A stretch of DNA of 20,000 nt from IMG/VR virus record IMGVR_UViG_3300006922_000015; one strand, given 5' to 3'. This stretch comes from an uncultured virus (IMG/VR IMGVR_UViG_3300006922_000015). Its lineage: Duplodnaviria; Heunggongvirae; Uroviricota; Caudoviricetes. A model generated the notes under the pieces. That model worked only from the letters and a program-made list of their open reading frames with translations, made no database searches and was not told where the DNA came from. This document shows, piece by piece, positions 9,375-19,557 of this stretch (positions are counted from its first letter, which is position 1; each line of letters starts with the position of its first letter). The position numbers and the translations under genes were made by a program.

Positions 9375-9382
9375 TATAAATA
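9375..9382 (+). promoter_or_regulatory. Late promoter for g23, perfect T4 consensus
   Basis: TATAAATA exactly, with an AGGAG RBS before the ATG at 9423. Confidence 0.9.
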
Positions 9383-9422: not shown

Positions 9423-10775
9423 ATGTTCAATACCGAACAACTCCAAGAGAAGTGGGCACCTGTTCTGTCTCATGGCGATCTCCCCGAGATCAAAGATAGT
9501 TACAAGAAAGCCGTTACTTCACAATTACTGGAGAACCAAGAAAAATTCCTCCGTGAGGAGAGAATGTTGACCGAAGCGCCTACAAACGCTGGTCCTATCA
9601 ATACTGCTACAACTGGTAGTGGCAACATCCAAGGCTTTGATCCCGTACTGATCTCACTGATCCGTCGTTCAATGCCTAACCTGATCGCCTATGACATTTG
9701 TGGCGTTCAACCCATGAATGGTCCTACTGGACTGATCTTCGCAATGCGCTCACGTTACGAGTCACAGACTGGTACTGAGACATTCTTCAATGAAGTCAAC
9801 CAAGCATGGTCTGGCACCGCTTATGATAGCGGCAACTCTGCTGGTGGTACTGCACAAACCGGAACTAACCCTGCCGTTCTTAACGACAGTGGTACTTACA
9901 CTTCTGGTGCTGGCATGGCATCGACCGCCGCTGAAGCACTTGGCGAAGCAGCATCTGCTGTATTCCCCGAGATGGCATTCTCGATCGAGAAGATCGCCGT
10001 TACTGCTAAGTCACGCGCCCTGAAAGCTGAGTACAGCTTGGAACTGGCACAAGACCTTAAGGCAATCCACGGTCTTGACGCTGAGACTGAACTTGCTAAC
10101 ATCCTTTCTGCTGAGATCCTTACGGAAATCAACAGAGAAGTCGTTCGCACAGTCTTCCGTTCCGCTAAGCCTGGTGCTCAACAGAACACCGCATCACAAG
10201 GAACCTTCGACCTCGACGTTGATAGCAACGGTCGTTGGAGCGTTGAGAAGTTCAAAGGTCTTCTTTTCCAAATTGAGCGTGAAATGAACGCCATCGCGAA
10301 AGAGACTCGTAGAGGGAAGGGCAACATGCTCATCTGTTCTTCAGATGTTGCTTCTGCTCTGTCAATGGCTGGAGTCCTCGACTACAACCCTGCCCTTAAC
10401 ACTGGTCTTAATGTTGATGACACCGGTAGCACCTTCGTTGGTACGCTGAACGGACGCATCCGCGTTTACATCGATCCTTATTCGGCACTTCCTTCTGAGG
10501 GCGCTAACGCTGCTCAGTTCTTCATCGCTGGATACAAAGGTACATCAGCATATGATGCTGGTCTGTTCTATTGCCCTTACGTTCCTCTTCAGATGGTTCG
10601 TGCAATTGGTCCTGACACCTTCCAGCCCAAAATCGGATTTAAGACACGCTACGGCATGGTTCTTAATCCCTTCGCTAAGGGTGACACTGCCCTTTCCGAT
10701 TCCGATCCAGTCGCCGCTGGCAACGTCAACACCAACGTCTACTACAGACGTGTACGTGTTACCAACCTTATGTGA
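9423..10775 (+). CDS. gp23: Major capsid protein
   Basis: LQEKWAPVL, DICGVQPMNGPTGLIFAMRS, AKSRALKAEYSLELAQDLKAIHGLDAE, YCPYVPLQM and FQPKIGFKTRYG. LTE|A is a likely gp21 cleavage site. Confidence 0.98.
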   Translation: MFNTEQLQEKWAPVLSHGDLPEIKDSYKKAVTSQLLENQEKFLREERMLTEAPTNAGPINTATTGSGNIQGFDPVLISLIRRSMPNLIAYDICGVQPMNGPTGLIFAMRSRYESQTGTETFFNEVNQAWSGTAYDSGNSAGGTAQTGTNPAVLNDSGTYTSGAGMASTAAEALGEAASAVFPEMAFSIEKIAVTAKSRALKAEYSLELAQDLKAIHGLDAETELANILSAEILTEINREVVRTVFRSAKPGAQQNTASQGTFDLDVDSNGRWSVEKFKGLLFQIEREMNAIAKETRRGKGNMLICSSDVASALSMAGVLDYNPALNTGLNVDDTGSTFVGTLNGRIRVYIDPYSALPSEGANAAQFFIAGYKGTSAYDAGLFYCPYVPLQMVRAIGPDTFQPKIGFKTRYGMVLNPFAKGDTALSDSDPVAAGNVNTNVYYRRVRVTNLM

Positions 10776-10798: not shown

Positions 10799-10823
10799 AG
10801 ACCCCTTACAGGGGTCTTTTTTT
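10799..10823 (+). terminator. Rho-independent terminator after g23
   Basis: AGACCCCT-TAC-AGGGGTCT stem-loop followed by a T run. Confidence 0.9.
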
Positions 10824-10965: not shown

Positions 10966-11139
10966 ATGCACAATCTATTATCTAGAGGTCAACTATCTGA
11001 ATGGAAACATTTTGAAAAATCAGTAGATCGAGCGGAGGTAGAATATCAAAAACTCAATGACTATTATGAGTGTTTAATCGAATGCGATTCACTAAATCAA
11101 AGTAAATGCAAACGAGTATGTAGAACAATTTTAAACTAA
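10966..11139 (+). CDS. 57-aa Cys-rich small protein (absent from the ORF track)
   Basis: Manual translation gives MHNLLSRGQLSEWKHFEKSVDRAEVEYQKLNDYYECLIECDSLNQSKCKRVCRTILN*. It has a strong GGAGG RBS 5 nt upstream, a Cx3C-x7-Cx3C motif, and a terminator directly downstream. Confidence 0.85.
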   Translation: MHNLLSRGQLSEWKHFEKSVDRAEVEYQKLNDYYECLIECDSLNQSKCKRVCRTILN

Positions 11140-11149
11140 AGAAATATAG

Positions 11150-11174
11150 AAGACCCCGCAAGGGGTCTTTTTTT
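11150..11174 (+). terminator. Rho-independent terminator with a GNRA tetraloop
   Basis: AAGACCCC-GCAA-GGGGTCTT followed by a T run. Confidence 0.9.
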
Positions 11175-11204: not shown

Positions 11205-11720
11205 ATGACCCAGGCAAATTGGTTGGTTGATAAAATTGATAATGCAAATTATCTGGCACCTCAAGGATTTAAACTATCGGTTTTAAAATTTCCTAAGGTA
11301 TCATTTTTGTGTCAATCAGTTGATATCCCTGGCATAAGAATTACTGACATTACAGTACCCAATCCTTTCCGAGACTATTCGATTGCAGGAACTGAAACAG
11401 AATTTGAAGATCTGACAGTTAAGTTTTTGATTGATGAAGATATGTCAAACTATGCCACTATTCATAAGTGGTTGAAGAAGACTGGTTTGGCAGAACAGTA
11501 TGACACAGATAAAGATCCGATCGAAGGTCAGATTGTATTAGAAATTTTAAATAGTAATTGGCAATCCAATCTTGTAATTGAATATGATGATGCATGGCCT
11601 GTATCATTATCACCTGTAGTATTCGATTCTACTGAGACTGGAGTACAATATGTTACCGCAACAGTTACCTTTAAATATCTCATATATAGAATTAAGTATG
11701 ATGGTACAGTGATTAGTTAA
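11205..11720 (+). CDS. gp3: Tail completion / tube terminator protein
   Basis: NYLAPQGFK, FLCQSVDIPG, FLIDEDMSNY and WPVSLS motifs; position downstream of g23 and upstream of uvsY, as in cyanophages. Confidence 0.85.
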   Translation: MTQANWLVDKIDNANYLAPQGFKLSVLKFPKVSFLCQSVDIPGIRITDITVPNPFRDYSIAGTETEFEDLTVKFLIDEDMSNYATIHKWLKKTGLAEQYDTDKDPIEGQIVLEILNSNWQSNLVIEYDDAWPVSLSPVVFDSTETGVQYVTATVTFKYLIYRIKYDGTVIS

Positions 11721-12148
11721 TGACTTTTGATGAAATCCAAGCGATGTGGGAACAGGATGCAAAAATTGATCCTGTCGAATTAGATACTGCCTCACTCAGT
11801 ATTCCACAACTACATTCAAAATATTTTAAAATTTTTTCAGAGTACAGATTTAAAAAGAAACAAGCAGCAGGAAACTTAAAGCAACTCACTCGCCGCAAGT
11901 TTGAATATTATTCAGGTAAAGGAGACCCAGAAGATTATAGGGAAAATCCGTTTGACCTAAAACTTCTTAAATCAGATTTGACAATGTATATCGAATCTGA
12001 TCCTCACATCAAAGATTTACAATTAAAGATAGATATGTACGATATTATTATCGAATATCTTGAGAGTGTTATCAGAATGATAAACACTAGATCATATCAA
12101 ATTAAAAACGCCATTGAATGGAAATCATTTATTGAGGGTATTAGGTAA
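11720..12148 (+). CDS. uvsY: Recombination mediator UvsY
   Basis: IPQLHSKY, EYYSGK and RSYQIKNAIEWKSF motifs; adjacent to uvsW. Confidence 0.9.
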   Translation: MTFDEIQAMWEQDAKIDPVELDTASLSIPQLHSKYFKIFSEYRFKKKQAAGNLKQLTRRKFEYYSGKGDPEDYRENPFDLKLLKSDLTMYIESDPHIKDLQLKIDMYDIIIEYLESVIRMINTRSYQIKNAIEWKSFIEGIR

Positions 12149-13620
12149 TGGCAGACATTGTTATCAGCAAAAGAAATGAAGTCTATCTTCAGATTGATTG
12201 CGAACCATATATTAAACAGGAACTGAGTGAGTATTTTACTTTTGAAGTTCCTGACGCAAAGTTCATGCCACAGTTTAAGAATAGAATGTGGGATGGAAAA
12301 ATTCGTTTGTTTAGTCCTGGTAACGGTCAACTTTATATCGGACTTCTTACATACTTGTTTGAATGGGCGGATGAACGAGAGTATACTTGTTCTCTAAAAG
12401 AAAATGAATACTACGGTAAACCTACTGAACGTGATCCTGATATTCTGCCAGAGACAGTAAGGGAGTATCTAAACTATCTCACTGAAGGAACTGCGATTAA
12501 ACCCAGGGACTATCAGTATAATGCTGTATTCAAAGCACTGAGAAATTATAGAAAGATCATCCTATCACCTACAGGGTCCGGCAAATCTTTTATGATCTAT
12601 GCACTAGTGAGATTTTTCACTGCTGCTAATCTTAAAACTTTAATTATCGTTCCTAGCATATCACTAGTCACACAGTTATTCAAAGACTTTGAAGACTATG
12701 GATGGAACCCTGAAGAGTATTGCCATAAGATATATCAAGGTGAAGCGAAAGTATCTGATGCTCCTGTAGTCATTACTACATGGCAGTCCATCTATAAACT
12801 TCCTAAGAAATACTTTGACTCATATACTGCTGTGATCGGAGACGAATGCCATACATTCAAAGCAAAGTCCCTTACCAGTATCATGACTAAACTTCATGAG
12901 GCTAAGTATCGCATCGGTTTTACAGGAACTTTAGATGGAACTAAAACACATCGTCTAGTATTAGAAGGGTTGTTCGGTGTCTCAGATAGAGTTACCAGTA
13001 CAACTGAGTTAATGCAACGCGATCAGTTGACGCAACTTAAAATTAAAATTCTTACACTCAAACATGAATCGTATAAGTTTGCGAACTATCAAGATGAGAT
13101 AGAATACATTGTAACACATGATAAAAGAAATGTATTCATTAAAAATTTAGTATCTGATCTACAAGGAAATACCTTAGTGTTATTTAATTATGTCGAAAAA
13201 CATGGTGAACCACTTTTTGATTTGATAAATAATAGCATAGGAGATACCAAGAAAGTTTTCTTTGTTCATGGTGGTGTGGAAGCATCTGAACGTGAGAACA
13301 TTAGACAGTTAGCAGAGGTAAATGATAACTGCGTTATCATTGCTTCCTACGGAACCTTCTCTACTGGTATCAACATTAAAAATCTACATAACATTATTTT
13401 TGCTTCTCCCAGCAAATCTAGGATTAGAAATCTACAATCGATTGGTAGAGTTCTGCGTAAAGGAGATAACAAATCACAAGCAGTACTTTATGACATTGCA
13501 GATGATTTTTCTAGAGGAAGTTATATCAACTATACTCTTAATCATTTAAAGGAAAGAATTAAAGTTTACAATGAGGAGCAATTTAATTATGAGATCATCC
13601 CCGTAAACATAAAAAAATGA
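12148..13620 (+). CDS. uvsW: SF2 helicase UvsW
   Basis: WDGKIRLF, Walker A SPTGSGKS, DECH box, GFTGT and QSIGRVLR. Confidence 0.96.
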   Translation: MADIVISKRNEVYLQIDCEPYIKQELSEYFTFEVPDAKFMPQFKNRMWDGKIRLFSPGNGQLYIGLLTYLFEWADEREYTCSLKENEYYGKPTERDPDILPETVREYLNYLTEGTAIKPRDYQYNAVFKALRNYRKIILSPTGSGKSFMIYALVRFFTAANLKTLIIVPSISLVTQLFKDFEDYGWNPEEYCHKIYQGEAKVSDAPVVITTWQSIYKLPKKYFDSYTAVIGDECHTFKAKSLTSIMTKLHEAKYRIGFTGTLDGTKTHRLVLEGLFGVSDRVTSTTELMQRDQLTQLKIKILTLKHESYKFANYQDEIEYIVTHDKRNVFIKNLVSDLQGNTLVLFNYVEKHGEPLFDLINNSIGDTKKVFFVHGGVEASERENIRQLAEVNDNCVIIASYGTFSTGINIKNLHNIIFASPSKSRIRNLQSIGRVLRKGDNKSQAVLYDIADDFSRGSYINYTLNHLKERIKVYNEEQFNYEIIPVNIKK

Positions 13621-14030
13621 ATGATAAATTCTTCGCCTCAATCAAATTAATGACTGGAGAAGAAATTGTCGCTTTTGTTGAAGTTCATGATGAAGGTCTA
13701 ATAGTCAGTAATCCTTTACTGCTAGAAGACATGAGTGCTTTAGAAGATCTATTTGAAGATGTGAAAGCATCTGGATTAAAATTATCTAAGTGGATTAAAT
13801 CAACAACAGACAATTTCTTTTTTATAGATGATACTAAAATTGTAACTATTAACGAACTTATTGAACCTGGACTTTCTCATTATAAGAAAGCAGTTAATGA
13901 AATTAACACTCATGAAAAAGAGTTTACCAACAAAATTAATAAAAGATCAACGCAAAAAAAATATCAAGGGTATCGCGCATCAGTTGATGATGCTAGAATA
14001 TTGTTTGAAGATCTATTCAATAAGTATTAA
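13617..14030 (+). CDS. Conserved hypothetical protein, possibly Sm-like fold
   Basis: N-terminal ASIKLMTGEEIVAFV motif; ATGA overlap with uvsW. Confidence 0.75.
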   Translation: MNDKFFASIKLMTGEEIVAFVEVHDEGLIVSNPLLLEDMSALEDLFEDVKASGLKLSKWIKSTTDNFFFIDDTKIVTINELIEPGLSHYKKAVNEINTHEKEFTNKINKRSTQKKYQGYRASVDDARILFEDLFNKY

Positions 14031-14062
14031 AGCTACTCTGTCTCTTGAACCCTTACAGAGTT

Positions 14063-14091
14063 ATTCTACAGATAAAACCTAATGTTGTCAA
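14063..14091 (-). promoter_or_regulatory. Sigma70-type promoter, leftward (antisense to ORF 13617 and uvsW)
   Basis: The minus strand reads TTGACA (14091-14086), 17 nt, TAGAAT (14068-14063). Confidence 0.7.
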
Positions 14092-14112
14092 GCTCTTAAA
14101 GTATGTTATAAT
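14085..14112 (+). promoter_or_regulatory. Sigma70-type promoter for g55
   Basis: TTGTCA (14085-14090), 16 nt, then TATAAT (14107-14112) with an extended TGn. Confidence 0.75.
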
Positions 14113-14147
14113 ATAAGTACAAATAGTAATAGGACACATGTGTCAAA

Positions 14148-14624
14148 ATGAGAATCAAAAAGAAGCCAGAACATTATGTAGATAATAAAGAGTTCTTGAG
14201 GGCACTCTCTGATTACAAATACCTGGTAAAAAAAGCCTTGACAGAAGAGACCGATCGCCCTAGGATACCGAATTACATTGGTGAGTGCTTCTTGAAGATC
14301 GCACAGCATCTGTCCTACCGTCCTAACTTCATCAACTATCCTTTCCGTGAGGATATGATTTCAGATGGTATTGAGAACTGTGTTCAGTACATCGATAACT
14401 TTGATCCTAACCGTGGTAATCCTTTTGCATACTTTACTCAGATTATTTACTATGCATTCTTGAGAAGAATTCAAAAAGAAAAGAAGCAACTAGAAATTAA
14501 AAGCAAAATTCTTGAGCGTTCTGGATACGATGAAGTTCTCCACGCTGATAAGAATGAACTGAATTACTCCTCTTCAGAATACAATAGTATCAAACAGAAC
14601 ATCGAGCAGAAAACTAGAAAATGA
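14148..14624 (+). CDS. gp55: Late-transcription sigma factor
   Basis: HYVDNKEF, YIGECFLKIA, YRPNFINY, MISDGIENC and NPFAYFTQIIYYAFLRRI. Confidence 0.96.
   Translation: MRIKKKPEHYVDNKEFLRALSDYKYLVKKALTEETDRPRIPNYIGECFLKIAQHLSYRPNFINYPFREDMISDGIENCVQYIDNFDPNRGNPFAYFTQIIYYAFLRRIQKEKKQLEIKSKILERSGYDEVLHADKNELNYSSSEYNSIKQNIEQKTRK
14238..14266 (+). promoter_or_regulatory. Sigma70-type promoter embedded in g55
   Basis: An A-tract followed by TTGACA, 17 nt, TAGGAT. Confidence 0.55.
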
Positions 14625-15667
14625 AAGTTGCCCTGATTACTGATACTCACTATGGATTTAAGAAAGGTAATCAAGACTACCATGATTACTTTCTCAAATT
14701 TTATAATGATGTTTTCTTTCCTACATTAAAGAAGAAAAAAATTAAGCACGTCATCCACTTGGGTGATGTGTTTGATATCCGTCGTAACATAGATTTCTGG
14801 TCTCTTAATTGGGCGAGAGATAATATTTTCAATCCTCTAGAGGAGATGGGTATTACTATGGATATGATGGTCGGTAATCATGATGCCTTCTACAAGAACA
14901 CTCTGGAGATCAACTCGCTAGAGAGTTTACTTCAGGAGTATTCTAACCTAAATGTATATTCAGAACCCTCTGAGGTCATTCTGGACGGGCGTAAGATGGT
15001 TTATCTGCCATGGATATGTGATCAGAACGAAGAGCAGAGTGTTAGTATCCTACGTGACACAGATGCTGAAGTAGTCTTAGGTCATTTAGAGATGGAAGGA
15101 TTTAAAACTAATCCTACTTATGTCTGTAATCATGGTCGTAGCACTAATGAGTTTTCTAAATTTGAACTGGTAATGTCCGGTCATTTTCATACTAAGAGTC
15201 AGAAAGGAAACTTTAAGTATCTTGGAAACTCTTATCAGATGTACTGGAATGATTATGCTGATGAACGTGGATTTCATATCTTTGATACTGAAACTTTAAA
15301 GTTACAGTATATTAAAAATCCTTACGAAATGTTTCATAAAATATTTTATGATGATACTAAGAATGAATATTATGACTTGGATGTTGAAAAATATAAAGAT
15401 ACTGTAGTAAAAGTTGTTGTAGAAAATAAAACAGATTACACTGCGTTTGATTATCTTATCAATTCTTTACAGGATGTCACATTAGATCTTAAGATTATTG
15501 AAGACTTTTCTACTGAGGAAAGTGATGATGAAGACATTCAATTGGAACATGAGGATACTTTAACTATTCTGGAAAAATATATTGAAGAACTTAATACGAA
15601 TTTGGATAGTGGTAAATTGAAAGAAATTATGAAATCTCTTTACGTGGAGGCACTAGAGGTGGTATAA
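14621..15667 (+). CDS. gp47: Recombination endonuclease subunit (Mre11/SbcD-like)
   Basis: Metallophosphoesterase motifs DTHYG, LGD, GNHD and SGHFH. Confidence 0.95.
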   Translation: MKVALITDTHYGFKKGNQDYHDYFLKFYNDVFFPTLKKKKIKHVIHLGDVFDIRRNIDFWSLNWARDNIFNPLEEMGITMDMMVGNHDAFYKNTLEINSLESLLQEYSNLNVYSEPSEVILDGRKMVYLPWICDQNEEQSVSILRDTDAEVVLGHLEMEGFKTNPTYVCNHGRSTNEFSKFELVMSGHFHTKSQKGNFKYLGNSYQMYWNDYADERGFHIFDTETLKLQYIKNPYEMFHKIFYDDTKNEYYDLDVEKYKDTVVKVVVENKTDYTAFDYLINSLQDVTLDLKIIEDFSTEESDDEDIQLEHEDTLTILEKYIEELNTNLDSGKLKEIMKSLYVEALEVV

Positions 15668-15936
15668 TGTATATACTGTGTCTTAAAGGAAAGGAAACCG
15701 AAGGAGCATATGCTGTTTCAAACAGTAAGAATGAAAGAGTTCTTCTGCTCTTCAGCGAAAAGGAAGATGCTGAACGATTTGCCGTTCTGCTTGAGGCAGA
15801 TGATTTCCCATCAATGTCTCCAGTTGAGGTAGACAGCGAATCAATGATTGAGATGTGCGATAGCACAGGTTACAAATATACTGTTGTTGCTCCAAACGAA
15901 CTGATTATTCCACCATCCCACCATGATTATTTTTGA
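15667..15936 (+). CDS. Hypothetical protein resembling cyanobacterial DUF3110
   Basis: The LLFSEKEDAERFAVLLEADDFP segment resembles the DUF3110 core as recalled (not searched). It has a GAGGT RBS and a TAATG overlap with g47. Confidence 0.65.
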   Translation: MYILCLKGKETEGAYAVSNSKNERVLLLFSEKEDAERFAVLLEADDFPSMSPVEVDSESMIEMCDSTGYKYTVVAPNELIIPPSHHDYF

Positions 15937-17650
15937 AACTATTCGTTATAAAAACTTCTTATCTAGTGGGAATAACTTCACTGAGATAACTCTGAATACT
16001 CATACTAATAATGTAATCATCGGAAAGAATGGTGCTGGTAAGAGTACTCTACTAGATGCTCTTACTTTTGTTTTATTCAATAAACCTTTTCGTAGGATTA
16101 ACAAACCTCAACTTGTTAATACTATTAATGGTAAGGATTGTCTTATAGAGGTTGAGTTCTCTCAGGGTAATAAAAAGTATAAGGTTGTCCGTGGCATGAA
16201 ACCTAATCTCTTTGAGGTTTATGTTGATGGAGAAATGCTGAACCAAGATGCTGCTACTGGAGATCAGCAGAAGTTCCTAGAACAAACGATCCTCAAACTT
16301 AACTATAAATCGTTTACCCAGATTGTTGTTCTGGGATCTTCTACGTTCATTCCATTCATGCAGTTGCCGATAGCATCACGTCGTGAAATTATTGAGGATC
16401 TTTTAGATATTCAAGTGTTCTCTACCATGAATACTAATCTCAAAGATCGCATGAAGCGATTAAACGATGATATTCGCTTCACCGAAAAGGATCTTGATCT
16501 AGTAAAGCATCGTATAGAGACACAAGAAGAACTCATAAAGGAACTCGAAACACAAAGTGATAACCTGATTGATTATAAGCAGGATAAAATCGGTAAACTC
16601 ATTACGCAAAGTGATGAAGTAGTTGAGGAAAATAATAATACTAACGAATATATCAAAGAAAGACAGTCTCTGTTATTTGACGGTGATAAACTTTCAAAAA
16701 AGTATGATAATTTAAAAGAATTTAAAGTAAAATTTAAAACTAAGGTTAATAACTTAGAAAAAGAAAACATTTTTTACTCTAAAAATGATAAATGTCCTAC
16801 CTGTAAGCAAGATCTTGATGAAAAATTTAAGACTGATAAGATAGATCGTAACAACGATACTATTACAGAGACTAAAAAGGCGTGGGAAATACTGGAGCAA
16901 CAGATAGATGAAGTCAAGGGACAAATTTCTGAATATACAGAAGTCTCTGATGATATTCGCAAACACTATAGCGTGATTGATAAGAATAATTCTCTCATCA
17001 ATCATATGAATAAGCAGATCAAAGAACTAGAAACTGAAATTAAAACTATCCAAGATAGTAAGAATGATTCTAGTAAAGAGCAGGAACAGTTGAATAATCT
17101 TAACGATCAACGTGTAGGTTATGAAAGTATTCTTGCCGCTCACAAAGAGAATAAAGATTACTACAGCGTTGCTGCTAATCTGCTGAAGGATACTGGTATC
17201 AAAACTAGGATTATCAAACGATATCTTCCAGTGATGAATAAACTCATCAACCAATACCTACAGCAGATGGATTTCTTTGTGAACTTCACACTCAGTGAGA
17301 GTTTTGAGGAGACTATCAAGTCTCGTTATAGGGACGACTTTAGTTATGCATCGTTCTCAGAGGGTGAGAAGTCTCGCATTGACATCGCGCTTATGCTAAC
17401 ATGGAGATCCGTTGCTAAGCTCAAGAACAGCGTAGACACCAACCTACTAGTCCTGGACGAGATCTTTGACAGCTCACTTGACAGCACGGGCACTGATGAG
17501 TTATCATTCATATTGAGGAACTTTACGAACGATCTCAACTTGTTTATTATCTCGCACCGAGAACACATGGTCGAGAAATTCGATCGTGTTCTCAAATTTG
17601 ATAAAGTGAAAAATTTTAGTAAAATGGAACAATTGATTAATGGAGATTAA
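15923..17650 (+). CDS. gp46: Recombination ATPase subunit (Rad50/SbcC-like)
   Basis: Walker A GKNGAGKST, coiled coil with a CPTC Zn-hook, signature FSEGE, Walker B LVLDE and H-loop ISH. Confidence 0.96.
   Translation: MIIFETIRYKNFLSSGNNFTEITLNTHTNNVIIGKNGAGKSTLLDALTFVLFNKPFRRINKPQLVNTINGKDCLIEVEFSQGNKKYKVVRGMKPNLFEVYVDGEMLNQDAATGDQQKFLEQTILKLNYKSFTQIVVLGSSTFIPFMQLPIASRREIIEDLLDIQVFSTMNTNLKDRMKRLNDDIRFTEKDLDLVKHRIETQEELIKELETQSDNLIDYKQDKIGKLITQSDEVVEENNNTNEYIKERQSLLFDGDKLSKKYDNLKEFKVKFKTKVNNLEKENIFYSKNDKCPTCKQDLDEKFKTDKIDRNNDTITETKKAWEILEQQIDEVKGQISEYTEVSDDIRKHYSVIDKNNSLINHMNKQIKELETEIKTIQDSKNDSSKEQEQLNNLNDQRVGYESILAAHKENKDYYSVAANLLKDTGIKTRIIKRYLPVMNKLINQYLQQMDFFVNFTLSESFEETIKSRYRDDFSYASFSEGEKSRIDIALMLTWRSVAKLKNSVDTNLLVLDEIFDSSLDSTGTDELSFILRNFTNDLNLFIISHREHMVEKFDRVLKFDKVKNFSKMEQLINGD
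17478..17507 (+). promoter_or_regulatory. Possible sigma70-type promoter in the g46 3' end
   Basis: TTGACA, 18 nt, TATCAT, about 145 nt upstream of ORF 17653. Confidence 0.4.
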
Positions 17651-17652
17651 TT

Positions 17653-17937
17653 ATGAAATACAATGAAGATGCGCTTCTCAAAGAGTTGCGCGATTATATC
17701 TCAGGAACCTATGGACAACATTATTCTGCTGGTAACGACAGTATTCAAACGTTAGATCTTATTGAATCATGTGGAGACGCTGAGGCATTCTGCCGCAGCA
17801 ACATCCTGAAGTATGCTTCCCGCTATGATCGTAAAGGCACTGCCCGTCGTGATATCATTAAGATCCTTCACTACGCATTGCTGCTGCTCCACTTCTCTGA
17901 CAAATCCAACATTACTGAAGAATACCCTAACCGATGA
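17653..17937 (+). CDS. DUF3310-like protein (T7 gp1.7 nucleotide kinase-related family)
   Basis: The pattern HY...IQTLDLI...FCRSNILKYASRY.RKG...DIIKILHY; GGAG RBS. Confidence 0.7.
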   Translation: MKYNEDALLKELRDYISGTYGQHYSAGNDSIQTLDLIESCGDAEAFCRSNILKYASRYDRKGTARRDIIKILHYALLLLHFSDKSNITEEYPNR

Positions 17938-18599
17938 CCATGAAACTGTCTGAAAATACTTTCAATCTTCTTAAAAATTTCTCTGGCATCAACCAGTCTA
18001 TTTCTGTGAAGTCTGGAAATACTATTCGCACCATTTCAGTAGCAGAAAACATTCTTGCTGAAGCAGATGTAGAAGAAACTTTCCCTAAGAATTTTTCTAT
18101 CTATGATCTTAATGAGTTCCTTGGTGGTATGTCGCTGATGCGTGGTGCTGACATGGAGTTTGGTAGCGATCATTATGTAAAAATTAAGAACAATCGTTCT
18201 GCTATTAAGTATTTCTTTGCTGACTCAAGTCTGATTAAGCAGGCACCAGACCAGGGTATTAAAGTACCATCGGCAGATGTAAACTTTATTCTGAGTGAAT
18301 CAGACATTCAAAGTCTTACTCGCGCCGCCGCTGTCTATCAACTTCCAGATTTTTCTGTGATTGGTGATGGCACTGATGTTACTGTTGTTGTCCGCGATAA
18401 GGAGAATGACACATCAAACACTTTCTCTATTAATGTTGGAAAAACTGATGATGAATTTGTCCTCAACATGAAAGTTGAGAACCTGAAACTTATCAGAGGT
18501 GACTACGATGTAGTAATGTCTAAGCGTCTCATCAGTCGCTTTACTAACAAAAGCATTCCTGTCACATACTGGATTGCTTTAGAACCAGACTCCAACTAA
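17934..18599 (+). CDS. gp45: DNA polymerase sliding clamp
   Basis: MKLSENTFNLLKNFSGINQS, IYDLNEFL and YWIALE motifs; upstream of g44. Confidence 0.95.
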   Translation: MTMKLSENTFNLLKNFSGINQSISVKSGNTIRTISVAENILAEADVEETFPKNFSIYDLNEFLGGMSLMRGADMEFGSDHYVKIKNNRSAIKYFFADSSLIKQAPDQGIKVPSADVNFILSESDIQSLTRAAAVYQLPDFSVIGDGTDVTVVVRDKENDTSNTFSINVGKTDDEFVLNMKVENLKLIRGDYDVVMSKRLISRFTNKSIPVTYWIALEPDSN

Positions 18600-18615: not shown

Positions 18616-19557
18616 ATGAGCGACCAGTATCTCTGGGTCGAAAAGTATCGTCCTCAAACGATTGACGATTGTATTCTACCAGATAGCATCAAACGTGATC
18701 TTAAGCAACAGGTTGCTGCTGGTGAGTTGAATAACCTTCTTCTCACTGGACCACCTGGTGTAGGTAAGACTACAGCAGCAAAGGCACTCTGTGCCGAACT
18801 TGGACTATCTTATATTGTAATTAATGGATCTGACGAAGGACGCTTTCTGGATACGGTACGGAACCAAGCAAAAACTTTTGCAACGACCGTATCACTTCAA
18901 GGAAGTAAGCACAAAGTCATCATTATTGATGAAGCAGATAACACAGGGAACGATGTACAACTCCTCCTACGGAGTTCTATTGAGGCGTATCATAGCAACT
19001 GCAGATTCATCTTCACCTGCAACTACAAAAACAAAATCATTGACCCCATCCAATCAAGATGTTCAGTCATTGACTTCACCTACAAAGGAAAAGAAAAGGC
19101 AGCTGTTGCGGGGCAATTCTTCAACCGTGTCAGGACTATACTTGAGGCGGAATATGTTGACTATGATAAAAAAGTTGTTGCAGAATTAATTCAAAACCAC
19201 TTTCCTGATTGGCGTCGTGTTCTGAATCAACTTCAGAAGTATGGCAATACTGGTAGTATTGATACTGGTATCCTTGCTGAGATCACTGACTTCAATCTCA
19301 AAGGACTTATGAATGCTCTGAAGAACAAAGAGTTTAATATTGTTCGTAAGTGGGTAGTTGCTAATCTGGATAACGATTTCAATATGGTTAGTCATCGTAT
19401 CTACGAAGCAATGTATGATGTTCTTACACCTGCTACTATTCCAGCAGCGGTTTTGATAATCGCTAAATACCAGTACCAGGCAGCGTTTGCTGCCGATCAG
19501 GAGATTAATCTTCTGGCATGTTTAACCGAAATTATGATGGAGTGTCAATTCAAATGA
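18616..19557 (+). CDS. gp44: Clamp loader large (ATPase) subunit
   Basis: LWVEKYRP, Walker A GPPGVGKT, IIIDEAD, SRC motif and ADQEINL. Confidence 0.96.
   Translation: MSDQYLWVEKYRPQTIDDCILPDSIKRDLKQQVAAGELNNLLLTGPPGVGKTTAAKALCAELGLSYIVINGSDEGRFLDTVRNQAKTFATTVSLQGSKHKVIIIDEADNTGNDVQLLLRSSIEAYHSNCRFIFTCNYKNKIIDPIQSRCSVIDFTYKGKEKAAVAGQFFNRVRTILEAEYVDYDKKVVAELIQNHFPDWRRVLNQLQKYGNTGSIDTGILAEITDFNLKGLMNALKNKEFNIVRKWVVANLDNDFNMVSHRIYEAMYDVLTPATIPAAVLIIAKYQYQAAFAADQEINLLACLTEIMMECQFK

Follow-up and report, generated by a model that had tools for sequence, protein, structure and literature searches.

Much of the marine Synechococcus and Prochlorococcus population is lost to T4-like cyanophages, and we know of no T4-like cyanophage in which a replication origin has been mapped. 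In T4, ori(uvsY) and ori(34) each combine a MotA-dependent middle promoter with a defined unwinding element, and UvsW removes the R-loops. In phage lambda, OOP derives from an intergenic host-sigma promoter that fires back into the 3' end of the upstream gene; the product is a non-coding antisense RNA that was once proposed to be a replication primer. Among cyanophages, Doron et al. reportedly described, in the abstract of their 2016 paper, host-like promoters that drive middle genes in Syn9. Here, we examine a host-type promoter that faces backward, directly upstream of the late sigma factor gene g55, in a 20,000-nucleotide (nt) stretch of the uncultured virus record IMGVR_UViG_3300006922_000015 from IMG/VR (hereafter, the window). 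The stretch is a fragment of a T4-like cyanomyovirus, and its parent record is a 48-kb contig. All listed genes, from g23 to g44, lie on the + strand; the promoter in question, the pre-g55 element, points leftward against them.

Published work touches on several parts of this arrangement. The available portions of PMC2984593 report that sigma70-like motifs precede early T4 homologues in S-PM2 and Syn9, that cyanophages lack motA and asiA, and that Syn9 has a single predicted theta origin, the position of which is not stated in those portions. As far as the accessible passages of PMC2984593 and PMC5931967 go, no antisense RNA other than CfrI of S-PM2 has been reported for a T4-like cyanophage; per the former, CfrI is experimentally confirmed in S-PM2 only and predicted in other cyanomyoviruses. 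The excerpts available from PMC4122927 describe PeSLs, in which a near-consensus sigma70 promoter with a 17-nt spacer accompanies a small stem-loop, repeated near variable genes in coliphages and vibriophages of the T4 type; no cyanophage name turned up when that paper was searched. The backward pre-g55 promoter goes unmentioned in the portions available of PMC2984593, PMC3037559, PMC5931967, PMC4122927, PMC4503421, PMC5082946, and PMC5490813. Searches of the full-text literature returned no description of this promoter or of the module to which it belongs; it may be mentioned by Doron et al. 2016, on Syn9 start sites, or by Weigele et al. 2007, with a predicted Syn9 origin.

The leftward promoter upstream of g55

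An earlier note on this DNA, made from the sequence alone, had proposed that two divergent sigma70 promoters share the heptamer TTGTCAA at 14085-14091. Direct reading and a consensus scan place both promoters exactly there, within the 118-nt non-coding gap that separates g55 from the upstream open reading frame (ORF), a cyanophage core gene annotated as Sm-like. Their parts are as follows.

14086-14091, - strand: -35 of the leftward promoter, TTGACA, within the + strand heptamer TTGTCAA (14085-14091)
14069-14085, - strand: spacer of the leftward promoter, 17 nt, fixed in length and free in its letters
14063-14068, - strand: -10 of the leftward promoter, TAGAAT, with a nearly invariant G just upstream
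14057 and 14056, - strand: predicted leftward start, T(-1) and G(+1), the latter being the 7th base past the -10
14048-14062, - strand: dyad or small hairpin AACTCT-GTA-AGGGTT, from -6 to +9, across the predicted start
14031-14056, - strand: predicted initial transcribed stretch, G-rich and C-poor, reaching the stop codon of ORF 13617-14030
14085-14112, + strand: g55 promoter, TTGTCA-16-TGnTATAAT, with its -35 at 14085-14090, its -10 at 14107-14112, and a predicted start at about 14119

The leftward site has the make-up of a sigma70-type promoter, with a TTGACA -35 and a TAnnnT -10 that lie 17 bp apart, within the 16-18 bp usual for the class. Both promoters score 11 of 12 in the consensus scan and are the top two among 65 promoter-like sites in the window. 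Sites scoring at least 9 of 12 are no more common than in shuffled sequence (65 vs 56.7 +/- 8.3). At a threshold of at least 11 of 12, the window holds 4 sites, compared with 0.70 +/- 0.80 per 20 kb of simulated sequence, and an opposite-strand pair of such sites with -35s within 25 bp of each other arose in 0 of 300 simulations (first-order Markov sequences of 20 kb each). Three other near-consensus sigma70-like sites are present in the window: TTGACA-18-TATCAT at 17478-17507 (+), in the 3' part of g46 and upstream of ORF 17653; TTGACA-16-AATAAT at 1395-1368 (-), inside ORF 1085-2749; and TTGACA-17-TAGGAT at 14238-14266 (+), inside g55.

Conservation was examined in the best 80 of 598 confirmed viral-contig loci, ranked by g55 likeness (65-97% amino acid identity); two loci (L007 and L076) were left out because their upstream DNA was too short. 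With the window counted in, the leftward pattern turned up in 78 of 79 upstream regions in a search for ANNNTA-N17-TGTCAA within 300 nt of g55, and its spacer never departed from 17 nt. At the sole miss, locus L002, the element is intact right after the Sm-like ORF but lies about 600 nt from g55, with a foreign ORF in between whose ATG stands 3 nt past the -35; the total is therefore 79/79. The element is likewise present in 10/10 named cyanomyoviruses representing 10 genera (S-PM2, Syn9, P-SSM2, Syn33, S-SRM01, S-SKS1, MED4-213, S-CAM7, S-SZBM1, and the freshwater phage S-CRM01). The ATTCTA-N17-TGTCAA geometry and the AACCCTTACAGAG segment, which had been singled out earlier for comparison across cyanophages, are strongly conserved; the lack of a conserved leftward -10 and -35 in related phages, named in the earlier note as evidence that would refute its reading, is thus not what the relatives show. 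In the IMG/VR contig L002 (region 835-920; g55 92% identical to that of the window), the foreign ORF extends over about 180 amino acids from its ATG, or 211 from an upstream TTG, resembles a 2OG-Fe(II)-oxygenase judged by eye alone, and has no sigma70-type promoter of its own; g55 at that locus uses a different -35.

The TTGACA -35 is identical across all 79 related loci and the 10 named phages. In an alignment of 73 distinct sequences (A1), T1, A2, and T6 of the -10 are invariant, the hexamers found among relatives being TAGAAT, TACAAT, TATAAT, TAGACT, TACACT, TAGGAT, and TATGAT, and the spacer columns are variable despite the fixed 17-nt length. The 6th base past the -10 is an invariant T and the 7th is G in at least 90% of the 73 sequences, on which grounds the start in the window was placed at G 14056. 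A start near 14056, as predicted earlier, thus coincides with the invariant T(-1) and the conserved G(+1). For comparison, the 7th base past the -10 is a purine in 63 of 81 other gene-strand promoters. By the same rule, equivalent starts are predicted at about 123698 in Syn9 (DQ149023), 84439 in S-PM2 (AJ630128), 124805 in P-SSM2 (AY939844), and 118151 in Syn33. The invariance of TTGACA and TAnnnT was itself a search condition, so the evidence lies in the fact that no locus failed; a covariance model recovered the same letters in five divergent phages (S-SKS1, MED4-213, S-CAM7, S-SZBM1, and S-CRM01).

Five complete genomes provide a wider frame. On the gene strand, TTGACA-17-TANNNT occurs 11-22 times per genome, compared with 0-4 for a reversed-pattern control, and on the opposite strand it is at chance level (1-4 vs 1-6 for the control). 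The pre-g55 site is among the opposite-strand matches in 5/5 genomes and is the only one in Syn9. As read from sequence, the conservation pattern is that expected of a promoter whose start is fixed, and the leftward site is very probably a real, selected promoter.

Every one of the 80 distinct arrangements has a rightward g55 promoter (score of 8-12 of 12), always back to back with the leftward promoter and with the two -35s 0-24 bp apart. A single -35 is common to both promoters in 29/80 arrangements, including the window, P-SSM2, and S-SRM01. The g55 promoter has a separate -35, 9-24 bp further right, in 49/80 (e.g., S-PM2), and in the remaining 2/80 (Syn9 and Syn33) its -35 lies 9 bp to the left, within the leftward spacer. 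Given that the g55 -35 occupies three different places, the leftward promoter appears to be selected independently of the g55 promoter. The earlier proposal of a switch built on the shared -35 does not survive as a general principle: sharing is one variant only and cannot be the conserved feature. The two promoters interpenetrate in Syn9 (L083 23700-23745) and Syn33 (118158-118186), and a C run is flanked by the two -35 hexamers as a perfect inverted repeat (TTGTCAAG-CCCC-CTTGACA) at many +13-class loci. S-CRM01 carries an extra ORF between the Sm-like ORF and the element. In the window, neither reading nor a terminator scan found a terminator between the Sm-like ORF and g55.

The start-spanning dyad, the G-rich leader, and the module family

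Two features lie at and beyond the predicted start. The first is the dyad. For 55 of 63 distinct sequences, its fold on the promoter-sense strand is the better one (mean -3.66 vs -1.83 kcal/mol, RNA parameters); its mismatches are G-U on the sense strand (96/504 cells) and C-A on the other strand. Among 84 copies, 84.9% of cells are paired, compared with 82.9% in shuffles (6/500 shuffles reach the observed value), and the covariation score is 0.266 vs 0.215 (reached by 0/500). At one pair, the counts are CG 28, UA 15, UG 11, GC 5, and unpaired 25; at another, they are UG 56, CG 21, and UA 4. Computed on related sequences and on an alignment fitted to the structure, these statistics give the dyad moderate backing. 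The best single argument for it comes from S-CRM01, where an unrelated 5-bp dyad, CUUAG...CUAAG, occupies the same place; MED4-213 has no dyad. Because its 5' arm precedes the predicted start, the RNA cannot contain the whole hairpin. As a single-stranded DNA hairpin the dyad is not stable, its energy of -1 kcal/mol being no better than that of shuffles (z-score 0.14).

Other readings of the same letters were considered. An alternative 7-bp hairpin in the window, CTCTGT...ACAGAG, is not conserved in two relatives, L003 and L004. An intrinsic terminator on the + strand at AACCC...GAGTT was rejected, as it would have a stem with C-A mismatches and the worse of the two folds (mean -1.83 vs -3.66 kcal/mol). 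Start-spanning dyads are not a general trait of phage sigma70-like promoters, 81 of which average -0.99 kcal/mol vs -0.91 kcal/mol for controls. By-eye comparison with consensus sequences offered no fit to NtcA, LexA, RpaB, or late-promoter (TATAAATA) sites; TATAAATA occurs once in the window, at 9375. An Rfam scan of 13000-15000 yielded no match with E < 0.37 and none overlapping 14030-14112.

The second feature is the leader. From +1 to +25, the 84 copies average 33% G and 9% C, a GC skew of +0.58 as opposed to +0.05 in 76 other sigma70-like promoters; 74% of the copies contain a GGG run, vs 7% of the 76 promoters. Dyad and G-rich leader together set these promoters apart as a subclass, for which the literature searches returned no description.

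The pre-g55 element is one copy of a promoter-plus-leader module that occurs in 1-3 copies per genome. The module comprises CTTGACAA, 16 nt, GTAnAAT, the start-spanning dyad, and the G-rich leader. Additional copies were retrieved with a core profile (nhmmer) and a covariance model (R1), and the further strong copies found in this way are all on the gene strand.

S-PM2, 162.7 kb: before the hypothetical gene S-PM2p212
Syn33, 13.8 kb: cpeT directly downstream
Syn33, 46.9 kb: before Syn33_083
Syn9, 52.7 kb: before gp88
IMG/VR contig G007, second copy: before a 115-amino-acid ORF and after a strong terminator
IMG/VR contig G004, second copy
L156, a contig of a metagenome-assembled genome (MAG): tRNA-Leu about 55 nt downstream

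P-SSM2 has the pre-g55 copy only. The 48-kb parent record of the window likewise holds 1 module copy, and the dyad and leader are absent from the three other near-consensus sites of the window. A pattern scan of viral contigs gave 80 fetched matches among those listed, 66 of them pre-g55 and 14 elsewhere. Among the former, g55 and the Sm-like ORF both occupy the reversed positions expected of them in 62, and g55 alone is present in 4; most of the latter, again among those listed, are followed by a co-oriented open frame that starts 25-80 nt downstream. Similarity between copies spans about -45 to about +17. Copies in the same genome have one variant of the start region, AACAC in both copies of Syn9 (52740 and 123705), AACCTT in two of the three of Syn33 (13830, 46909, and 118158), and AACTCT in both of S-PM2 (84446 and 162737). 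Within a genome, a rare dyad variant is thus alike between copies whose spacers differ, which suggests gene conversion or co-evolution with a trans-acting factor.

The pre-g55 copy alone is universal, reversed, and ORF-less. Since the module drives ordinary genes elsewhere, the reversed copy likely fires too. That the same module drives ordinary genes in these genomes had been overlooked in the earlier note; the module family, the start-spanning dyad, and the G-rich, C-poor composition of the first 25 transcribed bases are new here.

A host origin of the module was considered and rejected, as 20 matches in 185,579 prokaryote genomes are close to chance (roughly a dozen by our own rough estimate). 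Eight of these 20 matches look module-like. Three of the eight lie on contigs from Acidimicrobiaceae, Verrucomicrobiales, and Rhodobacteraceae MAGs (L151, L161, and L165, respectively) that encode a cyanophage g55 and the Sm-like ORF; these are probably cyanophage DNA binned into bacterial MAGs. The module is also present on L153 (from the same MAG as L151), L156, and L159. Two further copies, on L154 and L163 (contigs of a Synechococcus MAG and a single-cell assembly), may sit on either host or phage DNA, and downstream of them we found no ORF of at least 40 amino acids and no Rfam or tRNA match. Should L154 and L163 prove to belong to the host, a counterpart of the module would exist in cells.

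Possible roles of the leftward promoter

ORF 13617-14030 ends 26 nt short of the predicted start at 14056, which is convergent with that gene, and the 3' end of this ORF would be the first target of a leftward transcript. The genes and signals along and beyond this path are listed below.

9423-10775, + strand: g23
11148-11171, scoring on both strands: strong terminator hairpin that bounds the g3-uvsY-uvsW-Sm-like string on the left
11205-11720, + strand: g3-like tail gene, the first gene of this tightly packed string
11720-12148, + strand: uvsY, the second gene of the string
12148-13620, + strand: uvsW helicase, with UvsW_N, ResIII, and Helicase_C matches and a 4-nt overlap with the next ORF
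13617-14030, + strand: cyanophage core ORF ('methylamine utilization' / Sm-like), phrog_471, E 5.7e-25
14148-14624, + strand: g55, late sigma factor, with a weak Sigma70_r2 match
14621-15667, + strand: g47
15923-17650, + strand: g46
17934-18599, + strand: g45
18616-19557, + strand: g44

Matches to ORF 13617 by tblastn come from 213 records, solely of cyanophages and unannotated marine viruses. Two GC-rich strong terminator hairpins, at 10799-10817 and 11148-11171, follow g23 and the small ORF 10966-11139. Just past the second of these, about 25 nt 5' of the g3-like ATG, CTAAATA resembles a late promoter.

According to the earlier note, no minus-strand ORF occurs before 12330. Two short ones exist in the window, both with TTG starts (13685-13813, 42 amino acids; 13347-13472, 41 amino acids). 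Relatives, however, have no leftward ORF in common: among 73 distinct loci, the longest one to begin within 200 nt falls short of 40 amino acids in 52, and both the positions and the codons of the starts are scattered. A conserved terminator is also lacking, as a hairpin plus T run within 160 nt occurs in 9 of the 73 loci, at scattered positions. In the window, a terminator scan found no minus-strand terminator-like site from 14056 to 11896, and the hairpin at 11148-11171 is the first strong two-way hairpin on the path of the leftward transcript. A backward promoter without an ORF probably makes a regulatory or priming RNA.

The reading we favor, to which we assign a probability of roughly 0.45, is that non-coding transcription against the uvsW operon in the host-sigma phase lowers its expression until gp55-dependent late transcription. 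The leftward promoter would be a site for RNA polymerase carrying the host primary sigma factor and would fire during the host-sigma phase of infection. From about 14056, a non-coding transcript would enter the 3' end of ORF 13617 and then uvsW, and it may be antisense to the whole g3-uvsY-uvsW-Sm-like string. Through antisense pairing with rightward operon transcripts, or through head-on interference, uvsW and the Sm-like gene would likely be held down until late transcription, directed by gp55, sets in. In addition, the neighboring g55 promoter may be shielded or helped by the leftward one. The position at a boundary, the orientation, and the lack of an ORF fit this reading, and the antisense idea of the earlier note is plausible on the sequence evidence.

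Several points weigh against it. An antisense RNA that acts by overlap needs no invariant promoter of consensus strength, and an antisense role leaves the dyad and the G-rich leader unexplained. Our sample of the best 80 loci under-represents distant relatives. The RNA data, which consist of unstranded metatranscriptome contigs from relatives about 95% identical and indicate neither strand nor true ends, contribute a further point: RNA contigs (X1) cover 13271-14078 and 14181-15500, and the one ending at 14078 passes the predicted start by 22 nt and so is not the product of that start. Contigs from the same sample (X2) cover 13800-14039 and 14149-15066, and contigs from another study (X3) begin at 14144 and 14171. 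The stops of the RNA contigs do not coincide, yet in both studies 14079-14143 is left unbridged; a DNA contig (X10) spans the whole stretch. At most, this gap hints weakly at an interruption of transcripts over the core of the promoters. Being unstranded, the contigs neither show nor exclude a leftward RNA.

The features that an antisense role leaves aside are those addressed by an R-loop or primer origin, which the earlier note had also raised and which we consider unlikely. The G-rich RNA would stay on its template, the hairpin would hold the displaced sense strand open, and the 3' end of the RNA would prime DNA synthesis. The universal, ORF-less copy beside uvsW would be the primary origin and the forward copies secondary origins, and UvsW, transcribed late, would erase the R-loop and lead over to recombination-dependent replication. 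An origin is alone in accounting at once for the G-rich sense strand (GC skew of +0.58 in the leader vs +0.05; GGG in 74% vs 7%), for a dyad complete only in DNA, which pairs better on the sense strand and has its 5' arm upstream of the start, and for 1-3 copies per genome with a universal one that has no gene to express. T4 origin promoters double as mRNA promoters, so the forward copies are compatible with an origin. The G-rich start and the sense-strand dyad are in this sense compatible with the R-loop idea, which nevertheless received no direct support. Cumulative GC and AT skew shows no inflection at the element in the complete genomes of S-PM2, Syn9, Syn33, and P-SSM2, a result that is uninformative rather than negative for an origin, as skew is uniformly positive along the gene strand and may be blind in genomes transcribed from one strand. 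The DNA downstream, from +26 to +85, is only mildly AT-rich, with an AT fraction of 0.70 compared with 0.656 +/- 0.066 in random 60-mers, about 21% of which reach that value. Furthermore, the hairpin at -1 kcal/mol as single-stranded DNA is no better than shuffles, and the promoter is of the host type instead of a MotA-type middle promoter.

The back-to-back placement of the promoters in all 80 arrangements invites the view that the leftward promoter acts at the DNA level for g55 and not through its RNA: by supplying negative supercoils, in the wake of a leftward polymerase, that open the g55 promoter, by blocking read-through out of the operon to the left, or by competing with the g55 promoter for polymerase, as in the switch proposed earlier. 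We regard such a role as quite unlikely. It would suit the lack of a terminator between the Sm-like ORF and g55 and, as a weak hint, the failure of RNA contigs to bridge 14079-14143. At L002, however, the element stayed with the Sm-like ORF and g55 gained a different -35, and in S-CRM01 an extra ORF has come to lie between the Sm-like ORF and the element. The variable -35 spacing speaks against a precise switch, and the conserved leader and dyad would go unexplained.

More doubtful still is an operator, in which the start dyad would be the site of a phage or host repressor controlling the 1-3 copies and the pre-g55 copy would serve mainly as a site or sink. The dyad AAC...GTT is centered on the start, its pairing energy is too weak for a stable hairpin, and same-genome copies are alike in their variant, as a co-evolving factor would have it. 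Set against this are arms that vary in a compensating manner, with quite different letters in S-CRM01, L009, and L020, and one-sided mismatches that are always G-T on the sense strand, a bias not expected of a symmetric protein site; nor did a candidate regulator emerge. An operator could co-exist with an active promoter. Finally, a recombination cassette or relic of the PeSL-like mobile kind, with the pre-g55 copy kept as a by-product, is very improbable despite near-identical copies at junctions of variable genes and a foreign ORF inserted exactly at the element edge in L002, because a relic would not retain an invariant -35, an exact 17-nt spacer, and a start context across 10 genera, because PeSLs have an upstream terminator stem-loop and high density (as given in the available portions of PMC4122927) and their density in S-PM2 is reported as low (in those of PMC4503421), and because recombination between inverted copies would invert the intervening genome segment.

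Comparison with described systems

The element sits where the structural and uvsW gene string meets the string of g55 and the replication genes. A promoter that has no ORF, yet retains consensus strength in all lineages examined, must serve an important purpose, and this one offers a handle on how uvsW and the late genes stay down before gp55 and on where replication primes. Like OOP, the pre-g55 promoter is convergent with the 3' end of a nearby gene and has no ORF of its own; OOP is short and has its own terminator, whereas the pre-g55 element has no conserved terminator within 160 nt, and the two are unrelated in sequence. CfrI arises elsewhere in the genome, at psbA and a homing endonuclease gene, and has no known promoter module of the pre-g55 kind.

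The T4 R-loop origins are similar in that a promoter transcript could act at the DNA level, in their few copies per genome, and in their location near uvsW. They differ in their promoters, the T4 origins having MotA middle promoters and the pre-g55 element a host-type one. In PeSLs, a terminator stem-loop precedes an early promoter, and copies are numerous, in hyperplastic regions, whereas the module has its dyad at -6 to +9 and 1-3 copies. The host-like promoters of cyanophages, with 11-22 gene-strand sites per genome, resemble the pre-g55 element in TTGACA-17-TAnnnT and a purine start 7 nt on; 76 other promoters of this type have no start-spanning dyad with a G-rich leader. Unlike them, the pre-g55 element faces against the genes, has no ORF, and is universal at one position.

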